The notes under the pieces are model-generated. The model did not search any database, had not been told where the DNA came from, and saw only the letters and a list, made by a program, of their open reading frames with translations. Positions 29,734-39,357 of a stretch of 64,000 nt of DNA are shown here, piece after piece. This DNA comes from an uncultured Chlamydiales bacterium. Its GTDB lineage: Bacteria > Chlamydiota > Chlamydiia > Chlamydiales > JAAKFR01. The DNA lies in the NCBI GenBank assembly GCA_963699155.1, contig OY969414.1, forward strand, positions 331,757 through 395,756. Direction: 5' to 3'. The translations under genes were made by a program, and so were the position numbers. How positions within the stretch are numbered: position 1 is the first letter of the stretch; the number at the start of each line of letters is the position of its first letter.

Positions 29734-29931
29734 TCACGGAGAGTTCTTGGTGGTTTTGGCGGCTTCTTGTAAGGGTTGCCAGAAGCCGCGGTCGAACCAG
29801 CCATAGGAGCCGTTCCAAAAGAGAATGAAGGCAATCAGCCCGCCAAGAATGAGTAGTGTGTAGGTGAGATAGAGGAAGCGGGGCACGCGATTTTCTTCGC
29901 TGAGGGGCGGGTCATCATCATTCATGGTCAT
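29734..29931 (-). CDS. Small membrane protein resembling the CcoP N-terminal anchor
   Basis: EENRVPRFLYLTY followed by a TM helix; last gene of the cbb3 operon; overlaps the upstream small ORF. Confidence 0.55.
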   Translation of the reverse strand: MTMNDDDPPLSEENRVPRFLYLTYTLLILGGLIAFILFWNGSYGWFDRGFWQPLQEAAKTTKNSP

Positions 29932-30079
29932 CCTTAAAAAGGGTATATTTAGCCTCTTCGTTGAAGCCGAGCTTCTTTTTTCTCCATAGATAGATGAAGG
30001 TGAGTGCGGCGGAGCCAAAAAGGGCAAAGAGCAGGCTGTAATGGAGAATAAAGCCATAGATGCCTTGTCCATCTATCAT
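29918..30079 (-). CDS. Small membrane protein, CcoS/CcoQ-like
   Basis: 53 aa: one TM helix, then EEAKYTLFKDD; ATGA-coupled to ccoO. Confidence 0.6.
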   Translation of the reverse strand: MIDGQGIYGFILHYSLLFALFGSAALTFIYLWRKKKLGFNEEAKYTLFKDDHE

Positions 30080-31296
30080 GGGGCCCTTCCTTCGATGATA
30101 TCGATGGTGCGGATGGGATCTTTGCCCAGCCACCATGCTTGGGTTGGAGAGGTGATGCGGCTTCCTTTTGTCATCAGGTAGTGAAAAATGGCCTCAAATT
30201 TGTAGTTGGGAAGGCCGTAAAGGTGGGGGGTTGTTCCGGTAGGATCGTTGTCGAAGAAGTGTCTAAAAGCGGGCATAACACTACCGAGGCTTTCTGTCTT
30301 GGGCGACCAGAAATGGGACATGTGCCAATCGCGGTCGGGGCGTTTGATACCGACACGGGAGAGATCGGGGCCAATCCGGCGTGTACCTGGGAAGGTGACT
30401 CTTTGATAGATATATTCGTTTGCAGAAGAGGGAGGTGCTGGAAAATCAGCAGAGCCATTTAACACGGTGTCTTGGACCAGTGTGCGGGTTTGATCGGTAT
30501 GACAATACCAACAGCCTTCTATGCGATAGATATCTTCCCCCATGGAAATGAGCTCTTGTCTTGATAAGAAATGGAGCTTGCCAGATTGGAGTTCTTGGAG
30601 ATTCTGGATCGGCTCACCTTTTTCGCTGTAAAGCCAGTACTCCGTTCCTAAATATTTGGTCTCTGCTACTTTATATTCCCTCGGATTGTTGACATAGATA
30701 GCCCCTTGGGAAATTTCATAAGGCGGCCGATCTCCAATTAATGTAAAATCTTGAAAGGCCCAATGCTCCACCACGCCGTCGGTGTCGGATATTGCAAACC
30801 CCTCCTCTTTTTGAGGATCATAGAGCTCCCAAATGTCAAAGGCTGGGGATTGTTCACCAGGGTGCTCCTTTTTCCAAGCTACTTGTAGCTTGGTTTGGTA
30901 TTTCTCTACTGCTTCACGATCGAGGGATCTGCGGAGAAAGAGAAGGTGGGTGGTGAGTTTGAGAGGGCTTTCGCTTACTCGGGTGACATAGGGCTCTAGC
31001 GAAGGGTCGACTAAAAAGCGCCTCAAACCCTCTTCTTGATAGGCCATGAGGGTATATCCCTTCTTCAGATGGTAGACATATTGCAAACCCCAGCGCGCCG
31101 GGTTGGAGGTGCTCAAGTAGACGTTGGGATCAGAAACTTCATACATCTGCACCTGGTAGCTACTTGAGGGCTGTTGCCAACTGGAATCGATATAGCCAGG
31201 TGCAACAAGCGTGACGATGATCGCTGTGGAAAAAAGAAGAATGACCCCCAGGATTGTCCATAGCGCTGACCATTCGAGTTTCTCAAATGTTTTCAT
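30076..31296 (-). CDS. ccoO: cbb3-type oxidase subunit II (CcoO) with a large insertion
   Basis: N-terminal TM; GEDIYRIEGCWYCH; GTRRIGPDLSRVG; SVMPAF. Confidence 0.88.
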   Translation of the reverse strand: MKTFEKLEWSALWTILGVILLFSTAIIVTLVAPGYIDSSWQQPSSSYQVQMYEVSDPNVYLSTSNPARWGLQYVYHLKKGYTLMAYQEEGLRRFLVDPSLEPYVTRVSESPLKLTTHLLFLRRSLDREAVEKYQTKLQVAWKKEHPGEQSPAFDIWELYDPQKEEGFAISDTDGVVEHWAFQDFTLIGDRPPYEISQGAIYVNNPREYKVAETKYLGTEYWLYSEKGEPIQNLQELQSGKLHFLSRQELISMGEDIYRIEGCWYCHTDQTRTLVQDTVLNGSADFPAPPSSANEYIYQRVTFPGTRRIGPDLSRVGIKRPDRDWHMSHFWSPKTESLGSVMPAFRHFFDNDPTGTTPHLYGLPNYKFEAIFHYLMTKGSRITSPTQAWWLGKDPIRTIDIIEGRAP

Positions 31297-36894: not shown

Positions 36895-37389
36895 TTACAC
36901 CGTCGGTGAATACCATGCCTCATGGGCCAGAGCGACCTCCTGGCTTTTATCGACCAGGAGTTCTCCTGAAGCCCCTTTATAAATTTTGTAATAGACAAGT
37001 GGCCTTGGAGCCGGCCCTCCAGTATTTTTTCCATCTGTACTATAGGTGGAACCGTGGCAGGGACACTTAAAACCGGTCTCCACAGCATTGATGGTGCATC
37101 CCAAGTGGGTACAGATGGCCGTCATGCAACGGACGCGCCCTCGAGAGACTTCTAAAAAGACCTTTTGAGCAGGGAGAAAGACCCTTCCTTCCGACGAGAG
37201 CACATCAACAGGCCTGCCTATGGAGAATACACTGGGAGGGATCTTTAACGCATTGGGATAGAGAAAACCTAATATCGCTGCGCCCAAAAGGCCTCCGACG
37301 CTCGCCACAGCTCCCCAACCGATCAATGACAGGAAGCGCCGACGTGACATTTTGTTTTCATCGTTTAAGCTATTCCGGAATTTAGGCAT
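36895..37389 (-). CDS. Rieske iron-sulfur subunit with Tat signal
   Basis: SRRRFL twin-arginine motif plus TM; CTHLGC and CPCHGS. Confidence 0.93.
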   Translation of the reverse strand: MPKFRNSLNDENKMSRRRFLSLIGWGAVASVGGLLGAAILGFLYPNALKIPPSVFSIGRPVDVLSSEGRVFLPAQKVFLEVSRGRVRCMTAICTHLGCTINAVETGFKCPCHGSTYSTDGKNTGGPAPRPLVYYKIYKGASGELLVDKSQEVALAHEAWYSPTV

Positions 37390-37525
37390 CTTCTTTCTCT
37401 CTAAACATTTGATATTTGGGATCTTCTGGATCTTCGAACTGCCCACGTCGGATGTAATAGAGGAAGACGAGGAGTCCGCCCAAACCACCCACTAGCGTCA
37501 AAAGCAAAAACCAGAACACTTCCAT
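37382..37525 (-). CDS. ccoS: cbb3 oxidase assembly protein CcoS (47 aa, absent from the ORF track)
   Basis: Manual translation MEVFWFLLLTLVGGLGGLLVFLYYIRRGQFEDPEDPKYQMFREKEDA; GQFED motif; TGATG coupling to the upstream gene. Confidence 0.8.
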   Translation of the reverse strand: MEVFWFLLLTLVGGLGGLLVFLYYIRRGQFEDPEDPKYQMFREKEDA

Positions 37526-39357
37526 CAGCCTATCCACCTAAAAGAGTAGTTCATCAGATCCATCGTCACCGCTTGCGTGGGGCATTTTTCAGCGCAGAGA
37601 CCACAACGGATGCAGAGATCCTCATCTTTAAGCATGGCAGATCCAAGGAGATCCAATTCCTGTTCAGAGATCGCAGCCGAATCGATTCCATAGTGGTTGT
37701 CGACCGCTTTTCGTAACTCTCCATGGCCCAGATCGAGATTCATTTTTGAGAGCGGAATCAGCTTGAGACAATTGGTAGGGCAGACGTCGACGCAGCCATT
37801 GCATTTGATGCAGAGGCTTCCATCAAACACTGGCGAGACATGGCACTGCAAACAGCGCCCTGCCTGCTCATGCACCTCTTTGGGAGAATAGTTGTTTTCG
37901 ACCAAATTGAGATTGCGTCGTCTCAGGTGTGCAGGCTGGCCAGAAGGCAGTGCCCAGGAGGTGCGCAGGTAGCTCTTATCCCTTTGAGGAGGGATCGTCA
38001 TAAAGAGACCGACAAACTCTTGGTAAGGCCTTGTCCCTCTCAAATCAGCATCGATGGCCCTTGCCGCCTCTTGTCCATGGCGGACCGCAGTGATAAAAAG
38101 CGCCGGTCCAAAGGCTGCGTCGCCTCCTGCATAGATCCCTTTGACAGAGGTCCTTCCGCTCCCTTTTTCTGTTTTAAGGATGCCCCGCTCCATGGTCAAT
38201 TCACCTTTTTTGTCCCAACCATCGAAAAGGCTGAGATCCATCGCCTGGCCAATCGCAAGCGCGATCGTATCACAAGGGATGACATATTCCGTTTCAGGAA
38301 TGAATGTAGGGGCAAATTTCCCATCGGCATCGAAAAGAGTATAGACCCTTTGGACTTTGATACCACAAATTTTCCCCGCTCCATTCCTCTCGACATCGAC
38401 AGGGCCTACGCGATTGATCAGCCGAATGCCCTCTTCAATGCCATCCTCGATCTCAAATTCATCGGCTGTCTGTTCATTTCTGGATTCGAGGCAGATCATC
38501 GTCACCGATTCAGCCCCATTTCTCACAGAAGAGCGCGCCACGTCGAAGGCAACATTGCCGCCCCCCACAACAACGACATGTTTGCCAATTTTCCACTTCT
38601 CATGAGCATTGAGAACCCTTAAATACTCGACGCCGCGGATGACATCGGCCTCTTCGAAGCTGGGAATGGGCAGATCGCGCGATTTCCATAAACCATTTCC
38701 CAAAAAAATGGCATCGAACTGCTCTTGCAGCTCTGTGAGCGTGATATCGCGGCCCACCTTGGTGTTGTAATGGATTTTGGCGCCCAAATGCTCGATCGCC
38801 GCGCACTCATGGATGGGAATCTCATTTTTCAAGCGGTAATTGGGCACACCATAGACCAGCATTCCGCCCGGCATCGCCATCTGTTCGAAGAGCTCTACCT
38901 GATACCCCAAGCGCAAAAGATCGTGAGCGCAGGTCAGCGAAGCCACTCCCGCACCCACAGAGGCCACTTTCAAGCCATTTGGCTGAGGCTTTGTAGAACC
39001 CCTCGCATAGCTATATTCGAGCGACTTGATGTGGGCCTCCCTATCCAGCCCAAACCATTCATCCAGATACCTTTTCTGCGCCCGTATCGTCAGCGTCTTG
39101 TCAACCCGATCTCTCCGGCAGGCCATCTCGCACGGCGCCCCGCAGATAATCCCACAGACCGAAGCAAAAGGATTTGGCCCACGCGCAATCTTATATCCCT
39201 CCAACAAATTCCCCGACCGTATGGCCAACATATAGCCCCTACCATCGGTATTGACAGGGCATCCATCCCTGCAATCGATCTGTCGAATGAAATAGGCAAG
39301 ATCTGGGATGACTACATCATAAACTTCGCGGTAAGCCTTCTTAATCTTCTCATCCAT
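37525..39357 (-). CDS. GltD/DsrL/NfnB-like FAD- and NAD(P)-binding Fe-S oxidoreductase with C-terminal 2x[4Fe-4S] domain
   Basis: CRDGCP, CGIICGAPCEMAC, GAGVAS, GGGNVAFD, RCLQC, CIKCNGCVDVCP, CIRCGLCAEKCP. Confidence 0.88.
   Translation of the reverse strand: MDEKIKKAYREVYDVVIPDLAYFIRQIDCRDGCPVNTDGRGYMLAIRSGNLLEGYKIARGPNPFASVCGIICGAPCEMACRRDRVDKTLTIRAQKRYLDEWFGLDREAHIKSLEYSYARGSTKPQPNGLKVASVGAGVASLTCAHDLLRLGYQVELFEQMAMPGGMLVYGVPNYRLKNEIPIHECAAIEHLGAKIHYNTKVGRDITLTELQEQFDAIFLGNGLWKSRDLPIPSFEEADVIRGVEYLRVLNAHEKWKIGKHVVVVGGGNVAFDVARSSVRNGAESVTMICLESRNEQTADEFEIEDGIEEGIRLINRVGPVDVERNGAGKICGIKVQRVYTLFDADGKFAPTFIPETEYVIPCDTIALAIGQAMDLSLFDGWDKKGELTMERGILKTEKGSGRTSVKGIYAGGDAAFGPALFITAVRHGQEAARAIDADLRGTRPYQEFVGLFMTIPPQRDKSYLRTSWALPSGQPAHLRRRNLNLVENNYSPKEVHEQAGRCLQCHVSPVFDGSLCIKCNGCVDVCPTNCLKLIPLSKMNLDLGHGELRKAVDNHYGIDSAAISEQELDLLGSAMLKDEDLCIRCGLCAEKCPTQAVTMDLMNYSFRWIG

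Follow-up and report, generated by a model that had tools for sequence, protein, structure and literature searches.

Rieske/cytochrome b complexes of the anammox bacterium Kuenenia stuttgartiensis were reportedly treated by Kartal and colleagues in 2013. Those encoded by Kuste4569-4574 and Kustd1480-1485 are described in a recent paper (Hauser 2025, PMC12954380). The Kuenenia model has a five-helix subunit IV, haem cN and an extra b haem at the cytochrome b dimer interface, held by the N-terminal His43/His62 of two copies, and the Rieske protein Kuste4569 was measured at +303 mV; quinol-driven production of NAD(P)H is only a proposal even for Kuenenia (PMC12954380). In the bc1-cbb3 supercomplexes of Rhodobacter capsulatus and Pseudomonas aeruginosa, which were solved by cryo-electron microscopy, complex III feeds a cbb3 oxidase with the help of a membrane-anchored cytochrome c (PMC7876108, PMC10556555), and Acidobacteria have complex III-complex IV 'superoperons', for caa3 oxidases (Trojan 2021, PMC8407424). 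Environmental chlamydiae are known to have a bc complex (PetBD) and a cbb3 oxidase; by inference CcoNO goes back to the chlamydial ancestor and PetBD to that of the aerobic group, and Chlamydiaceae later lost PetBD (Dharamshi 2023, PMC9816063), and the cytochromes b of Parachlamydia and Waddlia fall into group A2 together with Kuenenia 1 and 2 (Baymann 2012, PMC3509893, Fig. 3). Here we analysed a window of 64,000 nucleotides from the genome of an environmental chlamydia (contig OY969414.1), in which positions 29734-39357 of the minus strand hold nine co-oriented genes for a flavoprotein, a Rieske/cytochrome b complex, a heptahaem cytochrome c and a cbb3 oxidase. The sequence establishes the gene content, the cofactor ligands, a conserved synteny and the co-inheritance of the genes, and the cofactor motifs are intact. 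We tentatively read it as a menaquinol-to-oxygen chain whose flavoprotein branch reduces NAD(P)+, a reading that we place somewhat short of even. That a bc complex and a cbb3 oxidase occur in a chlamydia at all is not the surprise, because both enzymes (PMC9816063) and the cytochrome b lineage (PMC3509893) are already in print. For the whole string of flavoprotein, Rieske/cytochrome b, heptahaem cytochrome and cbb3 oxidase, no earlier description was found in the literature searched, beyond whose reach lie subscription papers and supplements, and no paper in it combines 'heptaheme', 'Rieske' and 'cbb3'.

All nine genes were recovered, in the order that the original prediction had given:

37525..39357, minus strand: NfnB/GltD-like, NAD(P)-binding flavin adenine dinucleotide (FAD) flavoprotein, 610 aa, identified by Pfam, NCBIfam and invariant Cys
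37537/37525-37382, minus strand: ccoS, cbb3 maturation peptide with one transmembrane (TM) helix (PF03597 FixS, E 4.7e-8, 33.1 bits against a cut-off of 23.1)
36895..37389, minus strand: Rieske [2Fe-2S] protein with twin-arginine signal/anchor (PF00355, E 4.3e-11)
35562..36890, minus strand: cytochrome b6 fused to subunit IV, 442 aa (Cytochrome_B, E 2.8e-37)
32695..35391, minus strand: membrane-anchored heptahaem cytochrome c, 898 aa (PF13442, E 1.8e-35; FixO, E 2.4e-11)
31293..32705, minus strand: ccoN, catalytic subunit of a C-family haem-copper oxidase (COX1, E 7.1e-85; 3mk7_A, E 4.2e-59)
30076..31296, minus strand: ccoO, extended and monohaem, 406 aa (FixO, E 4.9e-22, on residues 251-351 only; CWYCH)
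29918..30079, minus strand: CcoQ-like one-TM peptide, 53 aa (weak FixQ match, E 0.053, below the cut-off)
29734..29931, minus strand: one-TM peptide resembling the N-terminal anchor of CcoP, 65 aa, with neither a haem domain nor CXXCH

Overlaps of 1-14 nt are found at six of the eight junctions, in agreement with the claim that the genes mostly overlap. The ATG of ccoS lies on the flavoprotein stop codon (TGATG), ccoS overlaps the Rieske gene by 8 nt, the haem gene overlaps ccoN by 11 nt and the genes of the 53-aa and 65-aa peptides overlap by 14 nt, while ATGA overlaps join ccoN to ccoO and ccoO to the 53-aa peptide. Spacers of 4 nt (Rieske/cytochrome b) and 170 nt (cytochrome b/haem gene, 35392-35561) make up the rest. 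The arrangement is not due to chance: the same order recurs across Chlamydiota and also in Kiritimatiellota and Lentisphaerota. Proteins of the window were searched with Pfam and NCBIfam profiles and judged against the curated cut-offs. The NCBIfam equivalog matches of the cluster proteins all lie below these cut-offs, and the proteins are, as far as profiles tell, divergent members of their families.

The flavoprotein matches Pyr_redox_2 (E 3.2e-24), Fer4_20 (E 2.7e-13) and Fer4 (E 7.7e-11), and is built from a GltD-type Fe-S domain at the N-terminus, a Rossmann core for FAD and NAD(P), and a 2x[4Fe-4S] domain at the C-terminus. Neither a TM helix nor a signal peptide is present, so the protein is cytoplasmic. 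In 27 aligned sequences, 16 cysteines are invariant (C29, C33, C68, C72, C76, C80, C502, C505, C516, C519, C522, C526, C582, C585, C588 and C592), and so is R501; the last eight form two CxxCxxCxxxCP boxes after the C502 C505 pair. These 16 residues give room for four Fe-S clusters, which are predicted to lie on a single path from the FAD toward the membrane. The best relatives in the PDB are NfnABC (9bov_A/9bp5, E 7.5e-82) and Thermotoga maritima NfnB (4ylf_B, E 2.5e-64), and further ones are 8oh5_C, 9n5u_A (NfnA), Pyrococcus furiosus NfnI-L (5jca_L) and GltD; the nearest solved relatives are thus NADPH-binding subunits, that of dihydropyrimidine dehydrogenase included. In GltD and dihydropyrimidine dehydrogenase NADPH is the donor and electrons run inward, and NfnB is reversible. 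Like NfnAB/NfnABC and GltD, the protein has the common fold with FAD, an NAD(P) site and an N-terminal two-cluster domain; unlike them, it adds the C-terminal 2x[4Fe-4S] ferredoxin domain and the CxxC pair, and in place of an NfnA or GltB partner, for which the locus has no gene, its partner would be the membrane cytochrome b. The predicted association of cytochrome b and flavoprotein was examined by docking, in which two copies of cytochrome b residues 1-424 were combined with flavoprotein residues 459-610, on alignments of our own, in three runs and with 3 controls. The median score for the C-terminal domain on the cytochrome b dimer was above that of the best control (0.43 versus 0.00; partner predicted local distance difference test [pLDDT] score at least 68, contact agreement at least 71%), but it is weak, and we do not count it as evidence. 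The docking mark is reached by 116 of 157 solved complexes and by 2 of 215 mismatched pairs, in a calibration set-up that differs from this job, and scores of 0.60 or lower include only 18 of those solved complexes and both mismatches.

The Rieske protein has a twin-arginine signal (SRRRFL), one TM helix and the boxes CTHLGC and CPCHGSTY, the latter of the Ser+Tyr type that is a high-potential signature. For this 'SY' type a potential of 300-350 mV is given (Baymann 2012, PMC3509893). The claimed homology to the anammox Rieske/cytochrome b complexes was confirmed, as the best matches in the whole PDB, 9rk3_A (E 4.9e-19) and 9rk4_A (E 9.9e-17), are the Kuenenia Rieske proteins Kustd1480 and Kuste4569, and the Ser+Tyr pair is shared with Kuste4569. 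The true start of cytochrome b, judged from homologues, is M67 of a longer open reading frame (ORF). Its NCBIfam matches are ExtP (E 7.1e-69) and ExtQ (E 1.8e-19), both below the cut-offs, its best PDB matches are b6 chains (E 2.8e-56), and it is 76-91% identical to the cytochromes b of its relatives. Seven TM helices were read from a hydropathy scan; six segments scored above the threshold, and helix B, with H119/H133, stayed below it. The haem ligands H119/H133 and H224/H239, with b6-type spacing, are invariant in all 23 sequences aligned, as are the Qo motif APWY (A349-P350-W351-Y352) and His50, which belongs to a conserved N-terminal motif, FFLHxHP, on the n-side (cytoplasmic side). None of the 23 has the haem ci/cn cysteine (CxGG); at this place stands TLGLG, in which T66, G68 and G70 are invariant, L69 is nearly so and L67 is the residue of the window copy. 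The APWY clade was described as uncharacterised (Kao & Hunte 2014, PMC4122944). The CxGG cysteine is common in that clade, as WCMGG, but is absent from the window cytochrome b.

Exactly seven CXXCH motifs are present in the heptahaem cytochrome, which has a single TM helix at its N-terminus. Its N-terminal part is multihaem, a further stretch is CcoO-like, and the C-terminal domains are class-I and CcoP-like. The ccoP profile TIGR00782 matches residues 689-783 (E 4.8e-16, below its cut-off), and CcoP chains are among the PDB matches. All seven motifs are kept in the 14 of 14 cbb3-linked homologues, whose lengths range from 580 to 1357 aa. The statement that the locus has no cytochrome c1 and no full ccoP proved right, as the heptahaem gene is the only multi-CXXCH cytochrome ORF of the genome and CcoP is represented only by the anchor-like peptide. 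No other genomic ORF of at least 60 codons has more than two CXXCH; three have two, of which the two that were read are not cytochrome-like and the third, of 1,885 aa, was left out of the reading. PF13442 domains above the cut-off occur genome-wide only in the heptahaem cytochrome. Below the threshold (PF13442, E 0.0024) lies a candidate soluble monohaem cytochrome c, a 124-aa ORF with a signal peptide and CSKCH (G000:C1:1958392-1958766, minus strand; L093 1393-1767), which may be the only soluble c-type cytochrome of the genome. The window copy of the 65-aa peptide has no Pfam match, FixP_N included. Four of eight aligned members of its family match PF14715 FixP_N (best E 8.6e-6), and the two best PDB matches of the family profile are CcoP anchors (9g83_v, E 0.0035; 3mk7_C, E 0.29); CcoP therefore seems to have been reduced to its anchor, a reading that comes from the family members and not from the window copy. 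CcoNO is regarded as the minimal core of cbb3 oxidases (Trojan 2021 citing Ducluzeau 2008, PMC8407424).

The match of CcoN to TIGR00780 (E 6.2e-81) is below the cut-off. In the alignment with 3mk7_A, the His of RPVH, VHN, AHH and GHAH and the Tyr of VYAW are kept. We take these histidines to be the haem b and b3-CuB ligands and the tyrosine to be the cross-link Tyr. The residue aligned to Glu323 of 3mk7_A is Gln (CLQGS versus TFEGP), at a position presumably occupied in P. stutzeri CcoN by the Glu hydrogen-bonded to the haem b3 histidine. Only residues ~248-354 of CcoO match FixO or solved CcoO chains, and a chlamydia-specific insertion of ~200 aa separates its TM anchor from the haem domain with CWYCH. 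The ccoO open frames, stop to stop, are accordingly 377-477 codons long in eight chlamydial loci and 190-235 in seven others; a ninth chlamydial locus, L018, is interrupted by a stop and was left out of this comparison. AlphaFold2 gave no usable fold for the extended CcoO from a 9-row alignment (mean pLDDT 39.5), and the insertion had no usable match in the ESM Atlas. C-family oxidases are used under microoxic conditions. The link of cbb3 to microoxic use is made for chlamydiae too (Dharamshi 2023, PMC9816063).

The association of the flavoprotein with the Rieske/cytochrome b genes is widely conserved. In a survey of loci, at least 600 stretches matched the pattern and 588 were confirmed as relatives; the best 80 loci were kept, and the flavoprotein was counted as present when a match of at least 200 aa lay on the same strand. 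It stands beside Rieske/cytochrome b in 75 of the 80, as expected from the original prediction, and the five misses are all at contig ends: in L027, L029 and L062 the contigs end 3.8-4.3 kb after cytochrome b, before the place at which the flavoprotein lies downstream in 16 Acidobacteriota loci, and L035 and L084 are 4.2-kb contigs, L084 starting inside the flavoprotein gene. The 80 loci span more than ten phyla, including Chlamydiota, Acidobacteriota, Planctomycetota, Myxococcota, Chloroflexota and Binatota. ccoN and ccoO follow in 34 of them (9 of 12 Chlamydiota-labelled loci, 19 of 33 Acidobacteriota, 1 of 1 Kiritimatiellota and 1 of 1 Lentisphaerota), and ccoS is found in 12 of 12 Chlamydiota-labelled loci. 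Cytochrome b, ccoN and the flavoprotein were also sought in 301 genomes of the phylum, and the lists of positive genomes were compared by eye. Cytochrome b occurs in 66, two more having only a weak match to a different type, ccoN in 71 and the flavoprotein in 63. All 66 genomes with cytochrome b have ccoN, and all 63 with the flavoprotein are among these 66. The three that have cytochrome b and not the flavoprotein, G186, G191 and G226, are assemblies of 30 to 290 contigs, and the cytochrome b match of G226 begins at the third base of its contig. In a family of chlamydial genomes of 1.0-1.2 Mb, cytochrome b, ccoN and flavoprotein were all not found in the 30 genomes searched.

The five genomes that have ccoN and no Rieske/cytochrome b also have no intact flavoprotein. 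G118 and G234 keep ccoS-ccoN-ccoO-peptide, G175 keeps ccoS-heptahaem-ccoNO, and in G130 ccoN is alone in the stretch fetched. In the complete-looking G085 (L094, G085:C1:2378000-2397000), a C-terminal remnant of the flavoprotein, ccoS and a 25-residue Rieske fragment lie beside ccoNO, which looks like a deletion of the Rieske, cytochrome b and heptahaem genes caught in the act. Since the flavoprotein is lost with Rieske/cytochrome b in these genomes, it shares the fate of that module and not that of the oxidase. Quick maximum-likelihood trees of cytochrome b and flavoprotein from the same 23 loci agree with this picture: every starred cytochrome b clade is starred again in the flavoprotein tree, and deeper branches are unresolved. 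The nine chlamydial rows form one clade in both trees (100*), Kiritimatiellota and Lentisphaerota form one (100*), Acidobacteriota another (95*/98*), and seven rows of Planctomycetota, Binatota and Myxococcota a fourth (100*/99*). A foreign origin of the cluster in chlamydiae was considered and rejected, as the chlamydial cytochrome b and flavoprotein each form one starred clade and come from many families of the order.

Other partners were sought in 32 loci without cbb3, which lie within L041-L088, by scanning 21 of 122 downstream ORFs. Most are followed by a cytochrome ORF with 4-10 CXXCH (seven or ten in 20 loci), and four have none or one CXXCH in the ORFs listed. The partners found include molybdopterin oxidoreductases, which are either ~1150 aa long and paired with a 375-aa Fer4_11 subunit or ~900 aa long and paired with an Fe-S subunit. 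Others are PCMH-like FAD oxidases (in L050, Citrifermentans, and in L068) and, in Chloroflexota, cytochrome c-cupredoxin proteins with Kelch proteins. Because the flavoprotein-Rieske/cytochrome b core is joined to different periplasmic partners in different loci, it looks like a hub; its partner in Chlamydiota is cbb3.

The claim of a single operon stood only in part: the tight overlaps and the order kept in relatives speak for it, and a strong hairpin repeat between cytochrome b and the haem gene, of which the original prediction made no mention, speaks against it. Two copies of this repeat border or divide the cluster:

35430..35536, no strand assigned: palindromic dispersed repeat, 107 nt with 42-nt arms that are 95% complementary (inverted repeat I2), inside the 170-nt spacer
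29625..29716, no strand assigned: second copy, directly 3' of the last gene (repeat families D1/D2, inverted repeat I5)

The arms of this ~105-nt palindrome start AAATTCAACGCAAAGACGCAAAGACGCAGAGACGC, and there are ~40 sites across the genome; the dispersed palindrome looks like a repetitive extragenic palindromic (REP) or miniature inverted-repeat transposable element (MITE)-like element, one copy of which has come to lie inside the operon. On the mRNA strand the spacer (35392-35561) forms a hairpin of -83.4 kcal/mol (z -11.3) followed by U5, and the 151-nt stretch 29590-29740 around the second copy folds at -50.9 kcal/mol (z -3.7). In relatives the cytochrome b/haem gene junction is only 3-20 nt long (e.g. 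L011 and L012), so the repeat was inserted in this genome in particular, where it may attenuate transcription or punctuate it. That the nine genes are one operon is thus likely by descent; the second copy is a plausible transcript end. Scans for promoter and terminator consensus gave 6 sites versus 9.7 in shuffles and 14 versus 10.4, that is, not above shuffles, and a promoter-like site 12 nt before the flavoprotein ATG was discounted on this ground. When translated, the repeat also yields spurious ORFs, such as 35388-35540.

The host genome is one contig of 2.40 Mb with 47.5% G+C. Its chlamydial origin is confirmed by a CT584-family type III secretion tip protein, a SycD chaperone, NqrA and a chlamydial GreA fusion, all within the window, and related loci come from metagenome-assembled genomes of Chlamydiae, Parachlamydiaceae and Waddliaceae. 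The genome has two MqnA/D matches and no UbiA equivalog was found in it, which indicates menaquinone. It encodes NQR and a bd oxidase, and the cytochrome b of the cluster is its only one. Its remaining two haem-copper oxidases belong to the Cyo type of quinol oxidases and have a COX_ARM motif; their operons lie in tandem at G000:C1:2160714-2170414 (L092 5715-15414), subunit II carrying COX_ARM, and the second ends in a COX4_pro subunit and a UbiA-family (haem O synthase-like) gene. A gene for cytochrome c maturation, on whose presence the original prediction depended, exists: CcsA was matched at E 6.5e-20, with a weak ResB-like match (E 4.1e-4, sub-threshold) on the ORF upstream of ccsA. As a ResB family search of the whole genome gave no match, the assignment to System II relies on CcsA and this weak partner. 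The window also holds HemB and, 2 kb from the cluster, tatC (27061-27768, plus strand; TIGR00945, E 4.4e-46), and a 60-aa ORF just upstream of it (26882-27064, plus strand) may be tatA; these would fit the export of a Rieske protein with a twin-arginine signal. A MazF-like endoribonuclease ORF lies at 6808-7227 of the window, plus strand (NF007386, E 6.1e-15).

Compared with Kuenenia, the locus likewise has a b6f-like cytochrome b with a Rieske protein, a multihaem cytochrome c that replaces c1/f and an adjoining NAD(P)-oxidoreductase subunit with four Fe-S sites, and His50 may correspond to the His that holds the extra b haem. Unlike Kuenenia, its high-potential partner is a cbb3 oxygen reductase and not an HAO-like octahaem protein, cytochrome b is fused to subunit IV, there are seven haems in the cytochrome c instead of six or eight, and the host is an aerobic or microaerobic intracellular heterotroph. 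The actinobacterial bcc-aa3 assembly is an obligate supercomplex with no free cytochrome c pool, in which the dihaem QcrC bridges complexes III and IV. A multihaem c subunit bridging III and IV is likewise predicted here, from genes alone, but the actinobacterial system has an A-type oxidase, a dihaem QcrC and no flavoprotein, and a candidate soluble carrier exists here. The R. capsulatus and P. aeruginosa supercomplexes combine a classical bc1, cytochrome c1 included, with a full dihaem CcoP and with monohaem carriers that are soluble or anchored; a flavoprotein is absent, and the genes do not form one operon (PMC7876108, PMC10556555); here one heptahaem protein would replace c1 and the haem domains of CcoP. 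The acidobacterial superoperons also have complex III and IV genes in one string, and acidobacterial cbb3 operons have ccoNO with an unknown cco gene, but the superoperons described in the accessible part of that paper are of the caa3 form and not of the flavoprotein-cbb3 form (PMC8407424). In our survey the 19 of 33 Acidobacteriota loci carry Rieske, cytochrome b, heptahaem and ccoNO genes as here; in 16 Acidobacteriota loci the flavoprotein is downstream of ccoO instead of upstream of ccoS.

Taken together, the cluster could encode a self-contained chain from menaquinol to oxygen. A b6f-like Rieske/cytochrome b complex of the 'A2'/APWY lineage would oxidise quinol on the periplasmic side. 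The first electron would pass over the high-potential Rieske cluster to the membrane-anchored heptahaem cytochrome, which would stand in for cytochrome c1/f and the CcoP haem domains and hand it by way of CcoO to the oxygen-reducing site of CcoN. The second would cross the membrane over the b haems. The NfnB/GltD-like flavoprotein, presumably docked on the n-side of cytochrome b at the cytoplasmic face, would be a subunit of the Rieske/cytochrome b module and not of the oxidase, and would connect the low-potential b-haem branch with NAD(P)(H) like a wire. As proposed for anammox, quinol oxidation pulled by oxygen would push the second electron uphill to NAD(P)+, and the complex would yield both membrane potential and NAD(P)H. 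We infer that the proteins form one complex, in which the heptahaem protein bridges to cbb3. A dedicated oxidase wire of this kind is favoured by the sole cytochrome b of the genome, by PF13442 being above the cut-off only in the heptahaem protein, by the Cyo type of the other haem-copper oxidases, and by a CcoP of which only an anchor-like peptide is left, next to a heptahaem protein with a CcoP-like C-terminus. If one follows Hauser 2025 (PMC12954380), the wide gap between Rieske protein and menaquinone would make the b haems very low in potential, and by analogy with Kuenenia a high-potential Rieske box in a menaquinone organism would imply that NAD(P)+ reduction is favoured. The fullest form of the mechanism, in which oxygen-pulled quinol bifurcation sends the electron over a His50-bound extra b haem and four Fe-S clusters to NAD(P)H, and the core is a reversible hub across phyla, is possible but in our view doubtful.

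Several points weigh against a chain that reduces NAD(P)+. The opposite direction is at least as natural, because NADPH is the donor in GltD and dihydropyrimidine dehydrogenase and NfnB works both ways, and it is not obvious why a chlamydia that is heterotrophic and depends on a host would need reverse flow to NAD(P)+. We estimate that ~+370 mV from menaquinol to the Rieske cluster faces 250 mV to NAD(P)+ and a membrane potential of ~150 mV; as ~370 mV would barely cover 250 + ~150 mV, the reduction comes out near zero energetically. Subunit IV has three TM helices here and five in the Kuenenia model, and the cysteine for haem cN is absent from all 23 cytochrome b sequences. The very stable hairpin with U5 parts the cytochrome b half of the cluster from the haem/oxidase half, cbb3 occurs without Rieske/cytochrome b in 5 of 71 ccoN-positive genomes, and the chlamydial locus L015 has an 8 kb flank and no ccoNO. 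The coupling is therefore not strictly obligate, and the 124-aa candidate cytochrome leaves a soluble electron carrier possible. The flavoprotein might instead be an input module, in which NAD(P)H reduces FAD, the four Fe-S clusters and then the n-side b haem or Qi, so that menaquinone is reduced and the whole is an NAD(P)H:O2 oxidoreductase with a Q cycle. This is possible, though we would sooner doubt it than accept it. Its flow runs downhill and calls for no special energetics, and the NADPH-binding relatives named above (NfnB/NfnI-L, GltD and dihydropyrimidine dehydrogenase) are at home in this direction, NADPH being the donor in the last two; reducing power is also not scarce in a heterotroph with NQR, bd and two Cyo oxidases, and the PCMH-like FAD oxidase partners of L050 and L068 in other phyla suggest that the module is not tied to one direction. 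Such a flow would, however, leave the Ser+Tyr high-potential Rieske protein of a menaquinone organism unexplained, and among the best 80 loci the flavoprotein accompanies only Rieske/cytochrome b and never other quinone reductase modules. It would also waste the energy span from NAD(P)H to quinone (Hauser 2025, PMC12954380). If it were true, the complex would give NADPH a way into respiration that neither NQR nor the Cyo and bd oxidases provide.

Simple equilibration would suit the single path from FAD to the membrane, with its 16 Cys and no second branch, and the flavoprotein might then be a reversible redox valve that drains or primes the b haems according to the state of the quinone pool and of NAD(P), with no net bioenergetic role. 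We think this improbable, and no less so the more specific form in which the valve limits semiquinone and superoxide at Qo under low or fluctuating oxygen. Our own energy estimate, near equilibrium, would agree with a valve, and the cbb3 linkage implies microoxic use; the strict conservation of a 610-aa, four-cluster protein over more than ten phyla suggests a main-line catalytic role instead. Quite improbable is an ordinary bc complex that merely shares the locus with a separate cbb3 oxidase, a diffusible cytochrome c carrying the electrons and the GltD-like protein being an unrelated soluble enzyme. Chlamydial reconstructions do treat PetBD and CcoNO apart (PMC9816063), a small monohaem cytochrome c is available as a candidate, the hairpin repeat splits the cluster, five genomes have cbb3 without Rieske/cytochrome b, and the docking score is only weak. 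Yet the flavoprotein adjoins in every locus with enough flank, its tree is congruent with that of cytochrome b, and in 66 genomes Rieske/cytochrome b never occurs without ccoN; the genome has neither a cytochrome c1/f gene nor a haem-bearing CcoP, translational overlaps tie the genes within each half, and the subunits of the Kuenenia homologue all co-migrate, as cited in Hauser 2025 (PMC12954380). A locus intact in sequence but being silenced or decaying in this lineage is very improbable. The repeat inserted between cytochrome b and the haem gene, the flavoprotein and Rieske remnants that alone stand beside ccoNO in G085, and a stop codon in ccoN of G213 would point that way, against which stand nine open frames, the conservation of every ligand checked and the 76-91% identity of cytochrome b to its relatives. 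The interpretation of the original prediction, a heme wire from quinol to oxygen with a low-potential branch to NAD(P)+ or ferredoxin, is thus partly supported, as a fair extension of a published but unproven hypothesis.

Flavoprotein-bearing Rieske/cytochrome b complexes have so far been discussed as a peculiarity of anammox bacteria, with a role in making NAD(P)H that is proposed and unproven. Here the same core is joined to an oxygen reductase in cultivable organisms (chlamydiae hosted by amoebae, and Acidobacteriota), so that the direction of the flavoprotein branch becomes testable with oxygen, an acceptor that is simple and can be controlled. What has been published for chlamydiae as a 'bc complex and cbb3 oxidase' is refined to one dedicated chain linked to the NAD(P) pool, in which the loss of the flavoprotein is shared by the bc genes and cbb3 can stay. 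If the reading of a chain that reduces NAD(P)+ is true, the complex would be an aerobic counterpart of the anammox mechanism and a respiration-coupled, energy-driven NAD(P)+ reductase in chlamydiae, Acidobacteriota and other bacteria of the Planctomycetes-Verrucomicrobia-Chlamydiae group, and the flavoprotein-Rieske/cytochrome b core would be a reversible hub that is plugged into oxidases, molybdoenzymes or periplasmic dehydrogenases.

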